Below are positions 5,533-45,988 of a DNA stretch of 64,000 bases, in pieces. The stretch's first letter is position 1. Every line of letters begins with the position of its first letter. Under the pieces are notes generated by a model, which did no database searches, was not told the origin of the DNA, and saw only the letters and a program-made list of their open reading frames with translations. Source of the DNA: an uncultured Chloroflexia bacterium (GTDB lineage: Bacteria > Chloroflexota > Limnocylindria > Limnocylindrales > CSP1-4); assembly GCA_963821595.1 (NCBI GenBank), contig CAWGEL010000010.1:65269-129268 (forward strand), read 5' to 3'. Both the position numbers and the translations under genes were made by a program.

Positions 5533-6210
5533 ATGGCAGGTCCGGGCACGACTCCGCCGCCGTCAGGCCAGGCACCGGGTGGAGGGAACTGGAATCAGCC
5601 TCCGGCCGGATCGCCCGGCGGTCCCGCGGCCGCAGGCGGCTTCCAGCTGAAGCCCGTCGAGGCTGGACCGGCGCCGGGCGTCGCGTATGCCGACCTCGGC
5701 ATCCGCATCGGCGCGTTCGTCATCGACGCGATCATCCTGGCGGTCGCGTTCTGGATCATCTTCTTCATCTTCGGCGCCATCTTCGTCGCGTCGATCTTCG
5801 ACCTCGGGCTCGGGCTCGGGCTGATCCTCCTCGTGGTCCTGGCGGCCGTGAACCTCATCGGATCCGCCGTGTACTTCATCTACACGTGGACCACGATGCG
5901 GGCTTCGCCGGGCCAGCGGATGCTGGGCCTGGAGACGGTCAACGCCGGCAACGGCGCGACGCTCACCCAGCCGCAGGCGATCCGCCGATGGCTCTTCCTG
6001 TACGGGCCGTACGCGCTCGTCGAGGTACTCCAGATCGGAGCGGGCTGGTTCGTCTTCACGCTCGGCTTCTTCGGTGCGCTCGCCCCGCTCCTCTCGCTGC
6101 TGTCCCTCGCCTACGGCATCTACCTGCTGTACACGACCTCGCAGAGCAGCAAGCGGCAGGGCTTCCACGACGTCCAGGCCGGGACCGTGGTCGTCAAGCG
6201 CGTCGCCTGA
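5533..6210 (+). CDS. RDD-family membrane protein with a Pro/Gly-rich N-terminal tail
   Basis: R-x-GAFVIDAIIL...three TM segments...RQGFHDVQAGTVVV matches the RDD domain pattern. Confidence 0.75.
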   Translation: MAGPGTTPPPSGQAPGGGNWNQPPAGSPGGPAAAGGFQLKPVEAGPAPGVAYADLGIRIGAFVIDAIILAVAFWIIFFIFGAIFVASIFDLGLGLGLILLVVLAAVNLIGSAVYFIYTWTTMRASPGQRMLGLETVNAGNGATLTQPQAIRRWLFLYGPYALVEVLQIGAGWFVFTLGFFGALAPLLSLLSLAYGIYLLYTTSQSSKRQGFHDVQAGTVVVKRVA

Positions 6211-6382: not shown

Positions 6383-7360
6383 TCAGGCGGATTGGCCGGA
6401 CCGCCTCGGCAGGTCCAGGCGGCCACTGCCGAAGCGCGTCCCGGCTCGGCCCCAGGCCACGGCCGCCGCGTCGTCCAGCGCCCCGATGGCGGCGAAGCGC
6501 CCGCCCGAGCGGACGAACTCCGCACACGCCCGGACCTTGGGCGCCATCGACCCGGCCGGCCACCAGCCCGACGCCACGCCGTCGAGCGCCTCCTCGATCT
6601 CGAGGTGGTCGATCGGCGCTGCGCCTGGCATGCCCCAGTCGCGGTAGACGGCCGAGACGTCCGTCAGCAGGAGCAGCCCGTCCGCTCCGACGGCCCGGGC
6701 GAGGACAACCGCCGCCAGGTCCTTGTCGACGACCGCCTCGCAACCCTCGAGCCGCCCGTCGGGCAATTCCACCACGGGCACGCCGCCGCCCCCGGAGGCC
6801 ACCACCAGCACGCCCGCCTCGACGAGCGAGCGAACGGCCTGGGCCTCGACGATGCGCAGCGGCACCGGCGACGGCACCACGCGTCGCCACATGTCCCCGT
6901 CGGGGGCGATCGTCCAGCCGCGCTCCGCGGCCAGGACTCCGGCAGTCACCTGGTCGTAGACCGGCCCGATCGGCTTGGTGGGGTGGGCGAAGGCTCGATC
7001 GTCGCCCCGGACCACGGTCTGCGTGACGATCACCGCGACGTCGCGGCGGATGCCGCGCTCGGCGAACGCGGCCCGGAGCGCCTGGCCGAGCAGGTACCCG
7101 ATCTGGCCCTGGGACTCGGCGCCCAGCACGTCGAGCGGCGGCGGAGGGACGACCTCGGCGGCCATCTCAGCCTCGATCGCGAGGAACCCGACCTGGGGGC
7201 CGTTGCCGTGGGTCAGCACGATCTCGGCGCCGCTGCGCTCGGCCAGGTCGACGAGCGCTCTCGCGGCGCCTTCCAGGTTGTGGCGCTGGACCTCGGTCGA
7301 CCCGGGCTCGCCCCGACGGATCAGGGCGTTGCCCCCAAGGGCGACCGCGATCCGCGTCAT
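6383..7360 (-). CDS. arcC: Carbamate kinase
   Basis: MTRIAVALGGNAL...LTHGNGPQVG...VVASGGGGVPV: family signature along the full length. ATGA overlap with the upstream transcarbamylase. Confidence 0.9.
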   Translation of the reverse strand: MTRIAVALGGNALIRRGEPGSTEVQRHNLEGAARALVDLAERSGAEIVLTHGNGPQVGFLAIEAEMAAEVVPPPPLDVLGAESQGQIGYLLGQALRAAFAERGIRRDVAVIVTQTVVRGDDRAFAHPTKPIGPVYDQVTAGVLAAERGWTIAPDGDMWRRVVPSPVPLRIVEAQAVRSLVEAGVLVVASGGGGVPVVELPDGRLEGCEAVVDKDLAAVVLARAVGADGLLLLTDVSAVYRDWGMPGAAPIDHLEIEEALDGVASGWWPAGSMAPKVRACAEFVRSGGRFAAIGALDDAAAVAWGRAGTRFGSGRLDLPRRSGQSA

Positions 7361-8298
7361 CCCAGGCGCTCGCCGCGGTGGTCGCCGCTGACCAGGGCGT
7401 AGAGGAGCGCCTGTTCCGTGTGCATGCGGTTCTCGGCCTGGTCCCAGACGCGCGAGAACGGCCCGTCGATGACCTCGTCGGTCACCTCGTCGCCGCGGTG
7501 GGCCGGCAGGCAGTGGAGGAAGATGGCGTGCGGGGCCGCCCGCTCCATGAGCGCCTCGTCGACCGTGTAGCCCGCGAAGACGCGCCGCCGCTCCTCGCGC
7601 TCGTGCTCCTTGCCCATGGAGGCCCAGACGTCCGTGTACACGGCGTCGGCTCCGCGGACGGCTTCCCGGGGATCCTGGCCAAGCTCGATGGTGGCACCGT
7701 GACCGGCGGCCTGGCGCCTGGCCCCGGCGATGATGGCCGCGTCCGGCTCGTACCCGGCCGGCGTGGCGATGGCCAGCGAGAAGCCGGTCTGCGCGGCGAC
7801 CTGGACCAGCGAGTGGCAGACGTTGTTCCCGTCACCGATGAAGGCGACGCGGATGCGACGCAGGTCGCCGAAGGCCTCCTCGAGCGTCATCGCATCGGCC
7901 AGGGCCTGGCACGGGTGGTGGTCGTCGGTGAGGGCGTTGATGACCGGGATCGTCGAGTTGGCGGCCAGGTCCTCGATCCTCGCCTGCTCGAACGTCCGCA
8001 CGACCAGTGCCGACAGGTAGCGCGACAGGACGCGAGCCGTGTCGGCGATCGTCTCGCCGTGGCCCAGCTGGAGCTCGTCCGGGCGCAGTGTGATGGGCAG
8101 CATGCCGAGCTTCCAGGCGGCCGCCTCGAAGCTCACGCGCGTGCGCGTCGACGGCTTGTCGAAGATGAGGCCGATCCGTCCGCCGTCGAGCGCACCCCGG
8201 CCCGCGGCCGGGGTCGCCTTGAGGCGCCGGGCGAGGTCGAGGACGTCGCGGGTGCCGTCCGGGCCGAGCGAATCGAGGGTCAGCAGGTGCTCGGTCAT
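7357..8298 (-). CDS. argF: Ornithine carbamoyltransferase
   Basis: STRTR, HPCQ, DVWASMG and HCLP motifs. The symbol is ambiguous between anabolic argF and catabolic arcB. Confidence 0.9.
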   Translation of the reverse strand: MTEHLLTLDSLGPDGTRDVLDLARRLKATPAAGRGALDGGRIGLIFDKPSTRTRVSFEAAAWKLGMLPITLRPDELQLGHGETIADTARVLSRYLSALVVRTFEQARIEDLAANSTIPVINALTDDHHPCQALADAMTLEEAFGDLRRIRVAFIGDGNNVCHSLVQVAAQTGFSLAIATPAGYEPDAAIIAGARRQAAGHGATIELGQDPREAVRGADAVYTDVWASMGKEHEREERRRVFAGYTVDEALMERAAPHAIFLHCLPAHRGDEVTDEVIDGPFSRVWDQAENRMHTEQALLYALVSGDHRGERLG

Positions 8299-9700: not shown

Positions 9701-10093
9701 GGTTCGTTCGCTCCCTTGCCGTTCGCGCCGTGGGGGACGCCCCGGCGGCGACGTGCGGCGAACGAGCCGGTTCCCGGCCTGGGGGCCCGGCGGTCGTCCA
9801 GTGGCCCGAGTGTCCGCAGCGCCGGCCCGGCGAGGCCAGTGCCGAGGGTCCCCGCCGGACGGGCCGGGCGGCCCGCCGCGCCGATCGACCTGGGGTCCCA
9901 CCGCGGGCGTCCTGGCGTCCGTCGACAACGCTGCGCTCGTCCTCGCCTTGATCGCGTCAACGGCCGTGCGTACACTCGCCGCGTAGGCGTGTTCCGGTTC
10001 TGCGACCACCGGGCCCGGGAGCTCGGGCTCCTCGACCAGACGACCGGAAGCTGATCGAGGAGGCAATCCGCGCCGGCCGGTGAGCAGGGAGGC

Positions 10094-11866: not shown

Positions 11867-12747
11867 TGGCCGACGCCGGGCCGGTGCGGCCTGTGGGGCC
11901 GGGGGAGCTCCCGGTCAGCATCCTGGTCGACTACGACCGGACGATCTCATTCCGCGATGTCGGCGACGACCTGCTGGCGCGTCATGGCCCGCCGGCGGCC
12001 GTGCTGGCGGCGGTGGAGGCCGAGTACGACGCCGGCAGGCGCGGGTCGCGCGAGCTGATCGAATGGAACATGGACACGCTGCCGGTTGACGCCCGGATGC
12101 TGCGGGAGGAGGCGGCCGCCGTCGCCCAGGATCGCGCCTTCCCCGCGTTCGTCGTCCTGGCTCGAGGGGCCGGCGCGCTCGTGGAGGTCGTGAGCGACGG
12201 CCTGGGGTTCTACGTCGCCTCGAACCTCGAGGCGCTGGACCCTGGCCTTGCCGACCTCCCGATCGCGACCACCAGGAACGAGGTCCGCGACGGCCGGGCG
12301 GGCGTGACCTTCCCGTACGGGCATCCCGACTGCGCCGTCTGCGGCACCTGCAAGCGGGAGCGCGTCCGCGCGCACCAGGCGAGTGGCCGCTTCGTCGTCT
12401 TCGTCGGGGACGGGACCAGCGACCGGTACGCGGCGCACCACGCGGATCTCGTGTTCGCCAAGGACAAGCTGCTCGCCTGGATGCGGGCGACCGGGCGACC
12501 CGTCCAACCGTGGCACGGGTTTCTCGAGCTGCAGGCCTGGTTCCGGGCTGCGGCCGGGGACGGGCGGCTGCCTCGCACAGCCGAAGGGGTCGCCGCGCTC
12601 CGTCGCGAGCGGCCCGCACCCGGGTTCATCTGCGGGCCGGAGGTCTGGGGTCCGGGCCGTCTCGTCCCACCCGGCCCGGACGTCAGCGGGCCGGCCCCCA
12701 GCCGTCGAAGCGGGCGAACTCCTCGAACGGGAGCCAGCCGCGCCTGA
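11866..12747 (+). CDS. HAD-IB family phosphatase (MtnX-like)
   Basis: ATG overlaps the EamA stop. DxDxT motif (LVDYDRTIS) and GDGTSD motif. The C-terminal tail is low complexity and overlaps the convergent gene. Confidence 0.7.
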   Translation: MADAGPVRPVGPGELPVSILVDYDRTISFRDVGDDLLARHGPPAAVLAAVEAEYDAGRRGSRELIEWNMDTLPVDARMLREEAAAVAQDRAFPAFVVLARGAGALVEVVSDGLGFYVASNLEALDPGLADLPIATTRNEVRDGRAGVTFPYGHPDCAVCGTCKRERVRAHQASGRFVVFVGDGTSDRYAAHHADLVFAKDKLLAWMRATGRPVQPWHGFLELQAWFRAAAGDGRLPRTAEGVAALRRERPAPGFICGPEVWGPGRLVPPGPDVSGPAPSRRSGRTPRTGASRA

Positions 12748-40986: not shown

Positions 40987-41433
40987 ATGGCGGTGACGTT
41001 CGAGCACGTTCCTCATCCGCGCATTGCCGCCCGCAAGAAACAAGGCCCGGCCAAGACGCGAGACGAGCACGTCGGCTTCAACGGCAAGGTCGCGCTCGCG
41101 CTCACCACGGCGGTGGGGACGATGTGGTGCGCCTACGCGTTCGCCCTGCTCGCCCTCGTCGTCCTGCCGCAGGCGGTCACGGGCGGCTTGCTCCTGTTCA
41201 TCCAGTGGGTCAGCCAGACCTTCATCCAGCTGGTCATGCTCTCGGTGATCATGGTGGGCCAGAACATCCTCGGCCGCGTCTCGGACAAGCGAGCCGACGA
41301 GACGTACCAGGATGCCGATGCGACGCTGCACGAGGCACAGCAGATCCAGGCCCATCTCAAAGCCCAGGACGACGCGATCAACCTGCTGCTCGAGAAGCTC
41401 GCGAAGCTCGAAGGGGCGGCCGGCCAGGCGTGA
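40987..41433 (+). CDS. DUF1003-like two-TM membrane protein with a C-terminal coiled coil
   Basis: GGAAGGAG RBS. Two TM helices, then IMVGQNILGRVSDKRADETYQDADA...: resembles the DUF1003 pattern from memory. Confidence 0.55.
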   Translation: MAVTFEHVPHPRIAARKKQGPAKTRDEHVGFNGKVALALTTAVGTMWCAYAFALLALVVLPQAVTGGLLLFIQWVSQTFIQLVMLSVIMVGQNILGRVSDKRADETYQDADATLHEAQQIQAHLKAQDDAINLLLEKLAKLEGAAGQA

Positions 41434-41614
41434 GGGACGGGCGCACGCGTGCACCACCGCCGCCTGTCGTGCGCGTGCGGCAGGCTTGAACGCAGGTGGA
41501 GGAAGCGGCGGGCAGGGGGTATGCTCTCGGCGATCGAGCGTCGTTCGCTCGCTCGCGGGCCCTGATCGTTCCTTCATTCCAATCATCACCCGGGGCCCGA
41601 GGGGAAGGCACCGA

Positions 41615-43609
41615 ATGTCGCTGCTTCAACGCGTTGCGCGAGCGGGACAGCAGGCCGGCAACGCCACTGAGAAGCCGGAGGCGCCGGGCGCCCCCGGAGC
41701 GCCGCCCCCGGCGGCTGCGCCGGGCCAGCCGGTTCCGCCCGTGCCACCCGCCGCGTCGGTGCCGCCAGCCGCTCCTGCACCGCCCACGCGGACCCTGCCT
41801 CGGGCTCCGGGCCGGGAGGAGTTGCTCCGCAACCTCCGGCTTCGCCTGCAGGGCGAGGTCATCGGCGCCTTCGATGGCGTGCTTTCGGCTTCGGGATCGG
41901 CGGAGATCCGCGGCAAGATCGCCGAGATCGTGGACCGGGTCATCGCCCAGCACGAATTCGCGGTGACGCGTGACGAGCGCCTGCGCCTGGTCGAGGAGAC
42001 CGTCAACGAGCTGACGGGCCTTGGACCGCTGGAGCCGTTCCTCCTCGATGAGTCCATCACCGAGGTCATGGTGAACGGCCCCAAGCAGATCTACATCGAG
42101 CGCAGGGGCAAGATCGTGCTCACGGATGCGGTCTTCGTGAACGACGAGCACGTCATGAAGATCATCGACCGGATCACTGCCCCCCTCGGGCGGCGCATCG
42201 ACGAGTCGAGCCCGCGGGTCGACGCCCGCCTTCCCGACGGCTCGCGCGTCAACGCAATCATCCCGCCCCTTTCTCTGGTTGGCCCGGTCATCACGATCCG
42301 CAAGTTCGCGGCCAAGCCATTCACGGTCGACGACCTGATCCGTTTCGGCACGGCGACGCAGGACATGTTCGACTTCATCCGGGTCTGCATCGAGGCGCGC
42401 CTGAACATCTTCGTTTCCGGCGGCACCGGGTCCGGCAAGACGACGACCCTGAACGTCCTGTCCTCGTTCATCCCGAACGACGAGCGGATCATCACGATCG
42501 AGGACGCCGCCGAGCTTCAGCTCCGCCAGGAGCACGTCGTGACCCTGGAGGCCCGCCCCGCCAACATCGAGGGGTCGGGCGAGATCACGATCCGCGACCT
42601 GATGCGCAACGCCCTCCACATGCGGCCTGACCGGGTCATCGTCGGGGAGTGCCGTGCCGGCGAGGCGTTGGACATGCTCAACGCGATGAACAGCGGCCAG
42701 GAAGGCTCGCTGTCGACCGGCCATGCGAACAGCCCGGGGGACATGCTCCGGCGACTCGAGACGATGGTCCTCATGACCGGCTTCGAGCTGCCGCTGCGGG
42801 CCATCCGCGAGCAGATCGCCTCGGCCGTCGACGTGATCGTCCATACCGCCCGCCTCAAGGACGGCACTCGCAAGATCGTCAACATCACCGAGATCTACGG
42901 GATCGAGGACGACGACATCCTCCTCCAGGACATCTTCGTCTTTGAGCAGACGGGCGTCGTCGAGGGCAAGATCGAGGGCCGCCTGAAGCCGACCGGCGTT
43001 CGGCCGACGTTCATGGCGAAGCTCAAGGCCAGCGGCATCCCGCTGCCGCCAGGGGAGTACGGCATCCCGCCCGAGGATCCCACGCACCCGACCCACCAGC
43101 CGAAGGGGCGATGGGCCGTTGGTGGGGCCGCCGAGAAGCCGGACCCTTCGCGCCCCCTCGTCGGCTCGGGCCGCGTCGTCACGGCCGGCGGCATGGTCTA
43201 CGTCACGGCGATCGGGCCCGTCGATCCCGAGACCGGCCTGGTCGTCGGCCTCGCGATCAAGGAGCAGACGCGCCAGTGCCTGCGCAACCTGAAGGCGAGG
43301 TTGGAGGCGGCGGGCAGCTCGCTGGACCGGGTCGTCTGGGCGAACTGGTCGCTGCGGGACCCGTCGGAGTTCGACGTCTTCAACGAGGAATGGGTGCGCG
43401 CATTCCCGGGTGACGCGCCGATCGGTCAGGGGACCCTCATGCCGCCCCTGCTGCGCAGGGCGGGTTTCCGAGTCTCGATCGGGGTGATCGCCCAGGCCGG
43501 CGTGGCCGACGAGGCGGCCGTGCCGGACGTGCCGGACCTGGCGGGCCTGGCGGCCGATACCGGCGTCACGGCGCCGCCGCCCGCGGGTCGGAGAGCCGCC
43601 GCGGACTGA
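41615..43609 (+). CDS. CpaF/TadA-type secretion ATPase fused in frame to a C-terminal RidA (YjgF/L-PSP) domain
   Basis: Walker A GGTGSGKTT, Walker B/Asp box RIITIEDAAEL, His box SLSTGHANS. After a Pro-rich linker comes GRVVTAGGMVYVTAIGPVDPETGLVV...IKEQTRQCLRNLKARLEAAGSSLDRVV... Confidence 0.8.
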   Translation: MSLLQRVARAGQQAGNATEKPEAPGAPGAPPPAAAPGQPVPPVPPAASVPPAAPAPPTRTLPRAPGREELLRNLRLRLQGEVIGAFDGVLSASGSAEIRGKIAEIVDRVIAQHEFAVTRDERLRLVEETVNELTGLGPLEPFLLDESITEVMVNGPKQIYIERRGKIVLTDAVFVNDEHVMKIIDRITAPLGRRIDESSPRVDARLPDGSRVNAIIPPLSLVGPVITIRKFAAKPFTVDDLIRFGTATQDMFDFIRVCIEARLNIFVSGGTGSGKTTTLNVLSSFIPNDERIITIEDAAELQLRQEHVVTLEARPANIEGSGEITIRDLMRNALHMRPDRVIVGECRAGEALDMLNAMNSGQEGSLSTGHANSPGDMLRRLETMVLMTGFELPLRAIREQIASAVDVIVHTARLKDGTRKIVNITEIYGIEDDDILLQDIFVFEQTGVVEGKIEGRLKPTGVRPTFMAKLKASGIPLPPGEYGIPPEDPTHPTHQPKGRWAVGGAAEKPDPSRPLVGSGRVVTAGGMVYVTAIGPVDPETGLVVGLAIKEQTRQCLRNLKARLEAAGSSLDRVVWANWSLRDPSEFDVFNEEWVRAFPGDAPIGQGTLMPPLLRRAGFRVSIGVIAQAGVADEAAVPDVPDLAGLAADTGVTAPPPAGRRAAAD

Positions 43610-43798: not shown

Positions 43799-44389
43799 AT
43801 GCAGGCGCACGACGCGAAAGTCCGTGCATTCTCGGAGCGACTCGCCGCGTCGCCGTGCTGCGCGGCGATCACGGCCCCCTCGCGACTCGACGAGGCCCTG
43901 GAGAGTGGCGTACCGATCGTGTTCGTGCTGCGCGCCGATGGCCTGGCCCTCCGCCCCGTGGTTCGCCGGATCCATGACGCCGGCAAGCTCGTCGCGGTCC
44001 ACCTCGACCTGGTCGACGGGATCCGGCCGGACGCGGCCGGCATCGGGTGGCTGGGCCGGGCGTCGGTCGACGCCGTGATCAGCTCGAAGGGCCAGCTCAT
44101 GCCGGCGATCCGCCGCGCCGGCCTCGTCGCCATCCACCGGCTGCTGCTGATCCGGCAGAGCCTCGTCGACACGGCGGTGCGCGCCGTCTCGACGTCGGGC
44201 GCCGATTTCGTGGAGGTCCTGCCCGGCGTGATCCTGCCCGAGGTGGCCGACCTCCTCGCTCAGATCCGCGCTCCCCTCCTGGCTGGTGGCTTCATCAGGA
44301 CCGAGGCAGAGGCGAGGGCGGCGCTGGCGGCGGGTGCCGCCGGCGTGACCACCAGCACCCTCGCCCTCTGGCGGGCCGACCTTGGCTAG
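43799..44389 (+). CDS. GlpP-family (glycerol-3-phosphate responsive antiterminator-like) protein
   Basis: VAVHLDLVDGI, VISSKG, AIHRLLLI, PDFVEVLPGVILPEV and LLAGGFIRTEAEARAALAAGAAGVTTS are collinear with B. subtilis GlpP. Confidence 0.8.
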   Translation: MQAHDAKVRAFSERLAASPCCAAITAPSRLDEALESGVPIVFVLRADGLALRPVVRRIHDAGKLVAVHLDLVDGIRPDAAGIGWLGRASVDAVISSKGQLMPAIRRAGLVAIHRLLLIRQSLVDTAVRAVSTSGADFVEVLPGVILPEVADLLAQIRAPLLAGGFIRTEAEARAALAAGAAGVTTSTLALWRADLG

Positions 44390-44954
44390 CCGGATCGGCG
44401 AGCTCGTGCCGCGCGTCCTGGCCGCCTGCGACGGCCGCGCGGCGCTGGACCTGCCCGGGCCGGTCGCGCCCATCCTGCTGCGGGACCTGGACCTCACCAC
44501 GCTTGCCGGCATGGGATCGGCGCGCCCACCGTGCGCCCTCGATCTCGATTCGGTGGACGGCCTGAACCCGGACGCGGCAGCCGTTCGCTACGTGATCGAA
44601 GATCTGGGCATCGGGACGATCGCGACCCGCCGGCCGGCCGTCGCCGCGCGAGCGGCGGAAGTCGGTGGACTCGGCCTCCTGCATGTCTTCGCGTTCGACT
44701 CGACGGGGTTGCGCCGCACGCTCGAGGCGCATCCCGGCGGGCCGCGGGTCGGCACGCTGGTCTCGCCGGGACTGGTGCTGTCGCATCTCGGCGCGGACGA
44801 GCTGGCGCGGCTGCCCCGACCACTCGTGGCGTACGGCCTCATCGGCACGCCGGCGCGCGCCCGCGCACTGCTCGCGATCGCCGATACGGTGGTGGTTCGG
44901 CCCGACATCGCGGCGTTGCTGCTGGCGGAGGAAGGTCCGGCCGAGCGACCGTGA
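44382..44954 (+). CDS. Second, more divergent GlpP-family paralogue
   Basis: LDLDSVDGL, GTIATRR, LLHVFAFDS, LVSPGLV and AYGLIGTP...TVVV occur in the same order as in GlpP. The TTG start overlaps the upstream gene by 8 nt (an alternative GTG is at 44406). Confidence 0.65.
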   Translation: MASRIGELVPRVLAACDGRAALDLPGPVAPILLRDLDLTTLAGMGSARPPCALDLDSVDGLNPDAAAVRYVIEDLGIGTIATRRPAVAARAAEVGGLGLLHVFAFDSTGLRRTLEAHPGGPRVGTLVSPGLVLSHLGADELARLPRPLVAYGLIGTPARARALLAIADTVVVRPDIAALLLAEEGPAERP

Positions 44955-45030
44955 CCACCGGGCCGGGCCGGAAACGCGCCGCGACAGGCTCCGCGCGGGC
45001 CGCCAGCCGGCACGACAGGCTGCAGGCCAC

Positions 45031-45060
45031 TTGACAGCAGGGGTCGCCGTCGCCTAGAAC
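45031..45060 (+). promoter_or_regulatory. Candidate promoter TTGACA-18 nt-TAGAAC
   Basis: Read directly from the sequence. The -10 is imperfect. Confidence 0.3.
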
Positions 45061-45101
45061 ATGCACAGCCTCAGTCACCGGGACTAGGATTCGGACAAGT
45101 C

Positions 45102-45139
45102 CCCGCTTCTGGCATCGTGCCGGAGCGGGTTTTTGTTTG
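45102..45139 (+). terminator. Intrinsic terminator-like hairpin with a U-tract in the leader of the HK-like gene
   Basis: CCCGCTTC (45102-45109) pairs with GGAGCGGG (45122-45129) across a 12-nt loop, followed by TTTTTGTTTG. T-runs are very rare in this window. Confidence 0.6.
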
Positions 45140-45175
45140 CCGAGAGCGAGGCCGGACCCAGGAGGGTCATCGCCG

Positions 45176-45988
45176 ATGGCTTCCGACGCCCGGATGGCCT
45201 ACCGCCGCCCGAGCATTCCGGCGCGTGCCTCGACCCGTGAACGGTCGATCGAACCGTCGATGCCCGGCCAGGAGTGGCGCGACCGGGCGGGCTGGTCGGA
45301 TCCGCAGCGGCTGGCCCTCGCCGGGGCCGCCGGAGAGGGCCTGCGGACCACGCTGGCGCTGATCGGTGGCTACGGCCAGAGCCTGCTCCACCTCGCGCTC
45401 GATGACGACACGCGCCGGCGCTGTTCGGAGGGACTGCTGGCCGCCGCCGACTCCCTTGCCGAGCTCACCGATCGCATCCTCGAGCTGGCGCTGAGCCGCG
45501 ATGGGTCGCCCCAGCTCCGCCGCCACCCCGTCGCCGTGGACTGGCTCGCCGGCCGTCTCGAGCGACCCGCGGCAGGGACCGGCGAGGCCGGGAGCGTCCG
45601 CTATCTGGCCACGACGGGGCTCTCGTTCGTCGACGTCGATCCGCTGTGGATCGGCCACGCGCTCCGCCTGCTCGTCGCTCGCGTGCGCCGGCGGGCGGGC
45701 CCGGGCTCCGTGGTCGAGATCCATGCCCGCGACGCCGGCACCACCGTCATCCTTGGCATCCGGACCGAGGGACCGGATGACCGCCGGCAGGCGGGCACGC
45801 CCGCCCCCGAGGAAGCGCGTCCTGCGGTGAGCAGTTCCGCGGACGAGGACGACGAGCTCGCCCTGTGCCGGTGGATCGTGGAGGCGAACGGCGGTGAGCT
45901 CTGGCTCGAGGCGGACGGTGGACCGGGTGCGGTCACCCTGCGCCTTCCCGCCCGGCCCCGGCCGGTGCTGACATCGCCTGGAGCCTGA
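45176..45988 (+). CDS. Soluble histidine-kinase-like protein lacking the phospho-acceptor His and with degenerate ATP-binding boxes
   Basis: The H-box position reads GEGLRTTLALIGGYGQSLL (canonical is HELRTPL). The C-terminus ALCRWIVEANGGELWLEADGGPGAVTLRLP resembles the end of HATPase_c, but the G1/G2 boxes are not intact. GGAGGG RBS. Confidence 0.6.
   Translation: MASDARMAYRRPSIPARASTRERSIEPSMPGQEWRDRAGWSDPQRLALAGAAGEGLRTTLALIGGYGQSLLHLALDDDTRRRCSEGLLAAADSLAELTDRILELALSRDGSPQLRRHPVAVDWLAGRLERPAAGTGEAGSVRYLATTGLSFVDVDPLWIGHALRLLVARVRRRAGPGSVVEIHARDAGTTVILGIRTEGPDDRRQAGTPAPEEARPAVSSSADEDDELALCRWIVEANGGELWLEADGGPGAVTLRLPARPRPVLTSPGA

Follow-up and report, generated by a model that had tools for sequence, protein, structure and literature searches.

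A 64-kb stretch of DNA from an uncultured Chloroflexota bacterium (hereafter the window; 72.4% GC) carries two overlapping genes of the GlpP antiterminator family, glpP and glpP′, followed by a short leader and a gene that resembles a histidine kinase (HK). We consider it likely that this region forms a GlpP/GlpP′-dependent transcription attenuator, which probably senses glycerol-3-phosphate (G3P). The evidence comes from the family membership and fold of the two proteins, from their coupling to each other and to the leader, and from a leader promoter, helix and terminator that recur in more than 100 related loci, with the helix and the terminator mutually exclusive in every leader compared.

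The paired GlpP proteins

Both reading frames belong to the GlpP family, as the earlier note on this DNA had suggested from the order of their motifs. In the search against PF04309 that it had proposed, GlpP1, the product of glpP, matched with E=8.9e-41 (139.6 bits; cut-off 27), and GlpP2, the product of glpP′, with E=2.7e-10 (40.4 bits; same cut-off), over residues 51-165 only. The GlpP1 sequence also matched the solved GlpP structures 3KTS (7.7e-21) and 1VKF (4.5e-19), and across 69 unique orthologues it retained the Bacillota GlpP motifs H.DL..G, ISS, E.LPG, AGG(F/L)IR and VTTS..LW. Tested in the forms H.DL..G, IS(S/T), E.LPG, AGG(L/F)IR and V(T/S)TS, these signatures were present in GlpP1 and absent from GlpP2, which instead carried conserved motifs of its own (DLDSV.GL, TRRP, FAFDS, SPG, AYGLI and VVRPD; 80 unique orthologues). 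The phosphate-binding loops of related barrels presumably lie at the positions where GlpP2 has replaced the G-G and T-T-S motifs. An AlphaFold2 model of GlpP2 (predicted local distance difference test score 88.4) had 3KTS and 1VKF as its top fold matches in the PDB (TM score 0.67-0.76), with phosphate-binding TIM-barrel enzymes ranking after them. As modelled, GlpP2 is a structurally intact paralogue that has kept the GlpP fold and in which most of the signature residues of the family have been replaced.

Homologues of GlpP1 numbered 569, the best of them from metagenome-assembled genomes (MAGs) of Chloroflexota or 'Candidatus Limnocylindrales'. GlpP2 had only 136, and those with a named source among the matches listed all came from Chloroflexota or 'Candidatus Limnocylindrales'. 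The overlapping PF04309 pair was kept in three large contigs. In the window the two frames overlap by 8 nt (TTGGCTAG), and the glpP′ start codon overlapped the glpP stop in 70 of 71 unique junctions (8 nt in 35 and 11 nt in 25), the layout that would be expected for translational coupling and equimolar subunits. GlpP and GlpP′ probably form a hetero-oligomer, in which GlpP1 would bear the canonical ligand site.

Promoter, P1 helix and terminator of the leader

Downstream of glpP′, the window contains a promoter-leader-terminator module (Table 1). The promoter, TTGACA-N18-TAGAAC, lies where the earlier note had read it, and transcription is predicted to start near 45067, about 13 nt before the first helix of the leader, P1. 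The built-in sigma-70 promoter scan of 40-50 kb did not call this promoter, because TAGAAC is without the final T. P1 pairs GGGAC with GUCCC and is the proposed antiterminator and putative protein-binding site. Its 3′ arm shares 2 nt with the 5′ arm of the intrinsic terminator, so that the competing helix suspected previously is borne out. The 8-bp terminator stem that had been described (45102-09 with 45122-29) is correct and can be lengthened, across a 1-nt bulge, by GGCA/UGCC to 12 bp closed by a 3-nt loop. The terminator region folded better than 200 of 200 shuffles (z = -2.6).

A stable hairpin followed by a T-run (at least 6 T in 9) occurred at exactly one site on the two strands of the 64-kb window, namely the leader terminator, which extends to both strands the uniqueness formerly noted for the plus strand. 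A terminator-tool scan of 40-50 kb agreed on this single site. Judging from the window, this 72% GC genome seems to have almost no classical intrinsic terminators other than those used for regulation. The terminator is followed by the ATG of the kinase-like gene, as had been observed, at 45176 and 36 nt past the U-run.

Searches of known RNA families did not place the leader. Against Rfam 15, positions 44900-45250 of the window returned at E<=10 only a spurious microRNA match (E=4, opposite strand), and a scan of the whole window at gathering thresholds returned only one c-di-GMP-II-GCG riboswitch and two tRNAs, the leader remaining unmatched. One further structure was considered in the leader itself: the 5′ hairpin of the minimum-free-energy fold of the window (CCUCAGUC/GACUAGG) had complementary sequences only in the window's own subgroup and is therefore not treated as a core element.

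Table 1. Positions of the genes and leader elements in the window, and of the Bacillota glp leaders used for comparison
Sequence	Feature	Position	Strand	Basis
Window	glpP (GlpP1), canonical GlpP-family protein, 196 aa (ORF1)	43799-44389	+	PF04309, structure matches, motifs
Window	glpP′ (GlpP2), divergent GlpP paralogue, 190 aa (ORF2)	44382-44954	+	PF04309, AlphaFold2 fold, motifs
Window	Leader promoter, -35 TTGACA	45031-45036	+	read from sequence
Window	Leader promoter, -10 TAGAAC, after an 18-nt spacer	45055-45060	+	read from sequence
Window	P1 hairpin: GGGAC (45080-84), 14-nt loop (UAGGAUUCGGACAA), GUCCC (45099-103)	45080-45103	+	conservation
Window	Intrinsic terminator, 12-bp stem with one bulge	45102-45129	+	sequence, folding
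Window	U-run of the terminator, TTTTTGTTTG	45130-45139	+	sequence, folding
Window	Shine-Dalgarno sequence AGGAGG of the downstream gene	45160-45165	+	read from sequence
Window	HK-like gene, 270 aa from ATG, degenerate histidine-kinase paralogue without phospho-acceptor His	45176-45988	+	Pfam, alignment
L024 (Paenibacillus)	glp leader	9926-9981		
L024 (Paenibacillus)	glp leader	12139-12201		
L146 (Bacillota)	glp leader	~6780-6860		
L147 (Bacillota)	glp leader	~5890-5970		
L148 (Bacillota)	glp leader	~8145-8215		

Conservation of the module in related loci

A protein-based scan with one genome per species yielded 19 loci, 17 of them in Chloroflexota MAGs and two in Bacillota (L023 and Paenibacillus L024). 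All Chloroflexota loci found through the GlpP protein had the glpP-glpP′ pair, then exactly one copy of the leader; L023 and L024 each had a single glpP beside glpK and glpD. We also scanned metagenome contigs with a pattern derived solely from the RNA, GGGACNNNRAN{5,9}AAGTCCCN{16,28}GCGGRNTTT, and recovered at least 120 stretches, of which 17 were evident chance matches (rough expectation ~15) and about 103 were true leaders. The counts of neighboring genes given below rest on the matches listed and include near-identical contigs, which were not de-duplicated; the leaders were compared in a set of 102 unique sequences (104 unique loci for the promoter), likewise drawn from the matches listed.

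In 94 of the 96 leaders with at least 700 nt of upstream sequence, glpP′ lay immediately upstream. On the 3′ side (n=111) the gene was glpF in 77 cases, HK-like in 29 and an OmpR-type regulator in four, with one gene not recognized; it was co-oriented with the leader and recognized in 110 of the 111 cases with enough sequence. Its start usually lay ~40-150 nt past the U-run, and ~370 nt past it in one subgroup. Since the upstream pair is fixed and the downstream gene varies, the constant partner of the leader is glpP-glpP′ and not any one target gene. The conserved neighborhood that the earlier note had proposed to look for, from the two glpP genes through the leader to the HK-like gene, thus holds for its first three members, which were kept in more than 100 loci, and the HK-like gene follows in a minority only.

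A covariance model (R1) built from the 102 unique leaders found exactly one copy in each of 30 loci and scored the window copy at 57 bits (E=9e-17). Searched over 522 kb, comprising the window, 31 loci, the regions upstream of glpF in the subgroup described below as HK class A, and the two Bacillota loci, it returned no extra leader copies. With one copy per Chloroflexota locus, multi-site control of the kind found in Bacillus subtilis was not seen within the searched sequence.

Among the matches listed, the only two true leaders without glpP′ upstream were L027 290-344 (-) and L101 559-612 (-). The L027 leader lies after an ORF for a pgsA-like CDP-alcohol phosphatidyltransferase, an enzyme that uses G3P, and both contigs end before the gene regulated by the leader.

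The motif shared after glpP′ consisted of GGGAC, 13-15 nt, AAGTCCC, a GC-rich hairpin and a T-run, and was present once per locus. GGGAC and AAGUCCC were invariant in the 102 unique leaders, in part by virtue of the search pattern, and were invariant as well in the 19 protein-found loci. Several positions of the P1 loop were nearly invariant, and the closing pair of P1 was C-G in 96 leaders, U-G in three and C-C in three. The promoter was kept in 103 of the 104 unique loci, with an exact TTGACA, a spacer of 16-19 nt and a TAnnnn hexamer (TACAAC in 34 and TAGAAC in 26) ending 15-19 nt before GGGAC. As this region lies outside the DNA search pattern, its conservation is independent evidence for a dedicated promoter, from which the transcript should start ~8-13 nt before P1 and, if terminated, should measure ~70 nt.

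A terminator with a U-run was present in all 102 unique leaders, with a stem of 11-14 bp in which five pairs showed compensatory changes, and it overlapped the 3′ arm of P1 in every one of them, by 2-5 nt. Leaders ahead of HK-like or response-regulator (RR) genes had an 11-bp terminator (CCCGC...GCGGG) with 3 nt in common with the GTCCC arm (2 nt in the window). In leaders ahead of glpF, the stem reached 14 bp because of a GU/AC extension with a bulged C, and all 5 nt of the GTCCC arm were sequestered. Folding for mutually exclusive structures, another check proposed for the window, accordingly found P1 and the terminator sharing nucleotides of the GTCCC arm in every leader.

On its own, P1 was worth -5.3 to -6.0 kcal/mol (window -5.3). 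Forcing it to form cost +4.2 kcal/mol in the HK class, +7.4 in the glpF class and +2.5 in the window, a range that a bound protein could supply. Given these energetics, the RNA alone should terminate, and a protein that stabilizes P1 could tip the balance.

We also considered an H-type pseudoknot between the 5′ flank and the P1 loop and set it aside as a general feature: the mean longest complementary run was 3.47 nt, against 3.20 nt for shuffled flanks, and the pairing, perfect in some HK-class leaders (TCTCC with GGAGA), showed no covariation between close relatives.

Gene arrangements and the missing glp genes

No match to GlpF, GlpK, the DAO-type G3P dehydrogenase, the iron-sulfur protein or the Sdh_cyt subunits was found in the 64-kb window by tblastn (E<=1e-5; the queries being proteins taken from one related locus), which upholds the observation that glpK, glpD and glpF are absent from it. 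Across the clade, the association with these genes is evident. About 70% of related loci fall into a glpF class, in the order glpP, glpP′, leader, glpF, glpK and glpD. In HK class A (L002/L149, L016, L042 and L107, for example), the order is glpF, glpK, DAO, iron-sulfur protein, two Sdh_cyt, glpP, glpP′, leader and HK-like gene, such that the glp genes stand upstream of the pair. HK class B, to which the window belongs along with L145, a relative 89% identical to it, and with L001, L006, L007, L009 and L012, has only glpP, glpP′, leader and HK-like gene, with no glp gene in the flanking sequence examined.

Because glp genes are directly adjacent in related genomes, we regard the system as a member of the glycerol/G3P regulon. 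The earlier note had proposed a ligand-gated antitermination switch acting on this leader for a target other than glycerol catabolism, and had allowed that adjacent glp genes in relatives would make the arrangement ordinary. The switch itself is supported by the coupling of the pair to the leader and by the invariant helix; the proposed target is not, as glp genes adjoin in ~70% of related loci and in HK class A besides. The puzzle of the missing glp genes is largely explained by these relatives. What is unusual in the window's sub-lineage is the wiring only, with an HK-like gene devoid of the His behind the leader and 64 kb free of glp genes; this wiring is a real minority variant.

In several relatives (L002/L149, 3100-5897 in L002 coordinates; L016, 5963-8859; and, 3′ of glpK, L018 and L020), the gene for the DAO-type G3P dehydrogenase of the glp operon is followed by those for an iron-sulfur protein (Fer2_3/Fer4) and for two Sdh_cyt membrane subunits, a set reminiscent of a membrane module of the succinate-dehydrogenase type that has been joined to G3P oxidation.

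The HK-like gene and its possible signaling partners

The product of the gene downstream of the leader in the window resembles the dimerization/phosphotransfer and catalytic domains of a histidine kinase. Its match to HisKA was sub-threshold (E=0.022; 15.2 bits against a cut-off of 26.9), and the Pfam search gave no match to HATPase_c. Its close orthologues in L001 and L145 had no Pfam match, and that of L002 was sub-threshold for both HisKA and HATPase_c. At the H-box, the consensus of 24 orthologues is SRELRTTL, with Arg for His, and the window has GEGLRTTL, with Glu. The G1 and G2 boxes have been lost in the window copy. In HK-class loci, GGAGG recurs 8-10 nt ahead of an ATGG.

A bona fide PAS-HisKA-HATPase_c kinase, of which the HK-like gene is a paralogue, stands beside glpF in L016 and L149. 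This kinase, together with an OmpR-type regulator, is divergent from glpF (L016 923-3081 (-); L149 1644-3970 (-)), and the pair was seen in each of the class-A loci with sufficient upstream sequence (2/2). In the RR class, the leader-controlled regulator of L004 (7322-8128 (+)) is without the conserved receiver Lys, having EDAADP vs DYITKP in the L016 regulator. We speculate that the His-less HK-like protein and the Lys-less regulator are degenerate signaling proteins that may modulate the two-component system.

Proposed mechanism

In the mechanism that we favor, glpP and glpP′ would be translated as a coupled pair, and the sigma-70-type promoter TTGACA-N18-TAGAAC would start the leader RNA ~13 nt before P1, the 3′ arm of which would double as the base of a strong intrinsic terminator. 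With the protein absent, the terminator would win and a ~70-nt transcript would be released. A ligand-loaded GlpP/GlpP′ complex, the ligand by homology being G3P, would bind and stabilize P1, whereupon the G-C pairs beside the U-run could not form and RNA polymerase would read into the downstream gene. The target of this read-through would be glpF-glpK-glpD in most relatives and, in the window's sub-lineage, the His-less histidine-kinase paralogue. Since the leader here precedes that paralogue, the switch would feed a regulatory protein and not catabolic enzymes. The system is a distinct variant in three respects: its regulator looks heteromeric, its leader motif is new and its output has been rewired.

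A more elaborate scheme can be built on the same elements. Here, GlpP would be an obligate hetero-oligomer of one ligand-competent and one degenerate subunit that reads a new hairpin RNA site, and in part of the lineage, the window included, it would have given up direct control of the glycerol catabolic genes and would control a pseudokinase (elsewhere an atypical response regulator) that modulates the PAS-kinase/OmpR system found beside glpF in L016 and L149, so that a signal would run from the metabolite through antiterminator and pseudokinase to the two-component system. We regard this full chain as doubtful.

Comparison with known antitermination systems

The closest known system is that of B. 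subtilis, where GlpP, in the presence of G3P, acts as an antiterminator in the 5′ untranslated regions (UTRs) of glpD, glpFK and glpTQ, and where glp promoters consist of a -35/-10 core followed by the GlpP site and then an inherent terminator (PMC9604022, PMC10573289). The proteins belong to the same family, PF04309, and GlpP1 shares 31-38% identity with GlpP from the Bacillota loci L023 and L024. The layout in cis is also the same, running from a sigma-70 promoter through a protein site to an intrinsic terminator in the 5′ UTR (PMC9604022). In most relatives, the targets (glpF-glpK-glpD) and the order of the genes (glpP-leader-glpF-glpK-glpD) agree as well. The differences lie in two coupled paralogues here versus a single glpP in the Bacillota loci examined, in one leader per Chloroflexota locus versus several glp leaders in Bacillus, and in a pseudokinase as the target in the window's lineage versus glp genes in B. 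subtilis.

The RNA elements differ as well. In the Chloroflexota the element is a GGGAC...GUCCC hairpin with its 3′ arm in the terminator, whereas five Bacillota glp leaders (Table 1) share AAGTT[AC]ATA and then a tandem GGAGA-N3-4-GGAGA abutting the 5′ arm of the terminator, a candidate GlpP site. Model R1 at E<=1 had no match in L023 or L024, the two Bacillota loci searched, in which two of these five leaders lie, and an Rfam scan of the two Paenibacillus L024 leaders returned no family. The Bacillota motif resembles the Chloroflexota GGGAC-UAGGA...GAGAAG, but only in a loose, purine-rich way. The leader of the window and that of Paenibacillus glpD share an eight-base match (GACUAGGA); with five Bacillota leaders compared, the common Bacillota motif proved to be GGAGA-N3-4-GGAGA, and the match is kept as a lead only. 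We found no paper on paired or tandem GlpP, or on Chloroflexota glp leaders, in a literature search.

In BglG/SacY/LicT systems, a weak ribonucleic antiterminator (RAT) hairpin sits just 5′ of a terminator that it overlaps by a few nucleotides, and it needs bound protein to out-compete that terminator. The logic is the same as that of P1 and the terminator here, to judge from the computed energetics of P1. The proteins are unrelated: BglG, SacY and LicT combine a co-antiterminator domain with phosphotransferase system (PTS) regulation domains, whereas GlpP has a TIM-barrel-like fold without a PTS phosphorylation domain, and its ligand is presumed to be a small molecule. TRAP, HutP and PyrR are metabolite-loaded oligomeric proteins that choose between terminator and antiterminator in a short leader, as GlpP/GlpP′ would be here; the crystal entries of solved GlpP homologues contain 4-8 chains. 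Their folds are not homologous to GlpP, and whereas they read short repeats, the conserved RNA feature here is a stem with a partly conserved loop and not an array of triplet repeats.

Alternative explanations

We weighed the attenuator against three other accounts of the leader. Were it a riboswitch that binds a metabolite (G3P, glycerol or something related) and acts independently of GlpP, its adjacency to glpP-glpP′ would be mere operon order. Invariance of the P1 stem and of several loop positions is also known from small aptamers, a classic terminator would serve as the expression platform, and a leader without an Rfam family could represent an undescribed class. The candidate aptamer, however, would be just one hairpin of 5-6 bp with a loop of 13-15 nt, its flank-loop pseudoknot being unsupported. 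The leader also stays with glpP-glpP′ when the target changes among glpF, HK-like and response-regulator genes, or when no glp gene is nearby; only two of 96 leaders among the matches listed are without glpP′ upstream; and at sites of this type, antitermination by homologues of GlpP has been proven. We therefore find a GlpP-independent riboswitch quite improbable.

The second account, raised in part by the earlier note, holds that the unit is a stand-alone small RNA of ~70 nt, or that the hairpin is the plain terminator of the glpP-glpP′ operon, with no conditional read-through in either case. Promoter and terminator do bracket a discrete ~70-nt transcript, a terminator 3′ of glpP′ would also end glpP-glpP′ transcripts, and the L001 leader starts only 21 nt after the glpP′ stop. 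Yet among the matches listed, a co-oriented gene follows in 110 of 111 cases, usually at the short distance noted above, and these genes are of three kinds only; no second promoter was noticed between terminator and gene on reading the intergenic sequence, although no dedicated promoter scan was made there. An invariant helix that overlaps the base of a terminator is, moreover, the signature of an attenuator, and the homologous B. subtilis system is one. The small RNA is thus not favored, and we judge this account as a whole improbable. As for a chance coincidence of hairpin, T-run and promoter-like hexamers in an intergenic region, the z-score of the hairpin is modest on its own and the promoter scan made no call, but in 64 kb of 72% GC DNA this is the single T-run terminator of both strands, and the window copy scores 57 bits under model R1. 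The recurrence of leader and promoter across more than 100 related loci refutes this account, for which the remaining probability is negligible.

For the GlpP/GlpP′-dependent attenuator, several points weigh on the other side. P1 gives no covariation, being invariant except for its closing pair, so support for the helix comes from conservation and position and not from compensatory change. In the window, P1 and the terminator overlap by only 2 nt and a hairpin of ~10 bp remains with P1 formed; stabilizing P1 alone may not abolish termination there, and the footprint of the protein would need to extend 3′. As the Bacillota leaders compared use a different motif, RNA recognition is not simply transferable from B. 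subtilis. GlpP′ is without most signature residues and may be a partner, a decoy or a protein of separate function. The source organisms are uncultured, and RNA binding, ligand and read-through, like the hetero-oligomer and the role of the pseudokinase, are proposed here from sequence and comparison.

Other features of the window

The c-di-GMP-II-GCG riboswitch aptamer found in the Rfam scan lies at 30427-30512 (+) and scored 71.2 bits (gathering score 47.9). It stands at the edge of a patch of lower GC (62-65% vs 72% for the window), and two small lipoprotein-like ORFs (~30560-30985 and 31200-31619) are located just downstream of it. The window also encodes, at 41312-43609 (+), an in-frame fusion of a CpaF/T2SSE secretion ATPase with a RidA (Ribonuc_L-PSP) domain. 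This fusion is not an assembly artefact, since it was also called, as a 661-aa gene, in L145, the 89% identical relative. Finally, a 1410-aa ORF with a third-codon-position GC content of 0.83 occupies 25013-29245 (-), in a stretch left empty by a simple gene filter.

Implications

GlpP is among the least understood antiterminators, its RNA site being poorly defined and its study confined almost entirely to Bacillus. The short invariant RNA target described here, with more than 100 natural variants and two terminator designs, makes RNA recognition by a TIM-barrel-like protein testable, and the split between a signature-bearing and a signature-less subunit offers a possible way to tell ligand sensing apart from RNA binding or assembly. 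U-tract terminators would appear to have been retained for regulation in a 72% GC genome from which they are otherwise almost absent, and in high-GC hosts the compact promoter-leader-terminator cassette, together with the two proteins that belong to it, could serve as a portable inducible part. For the lineage itself, the locus offers an example of regulatory rewiring, in which the same switch would have moved from catabolic genes onto signaling proteins.

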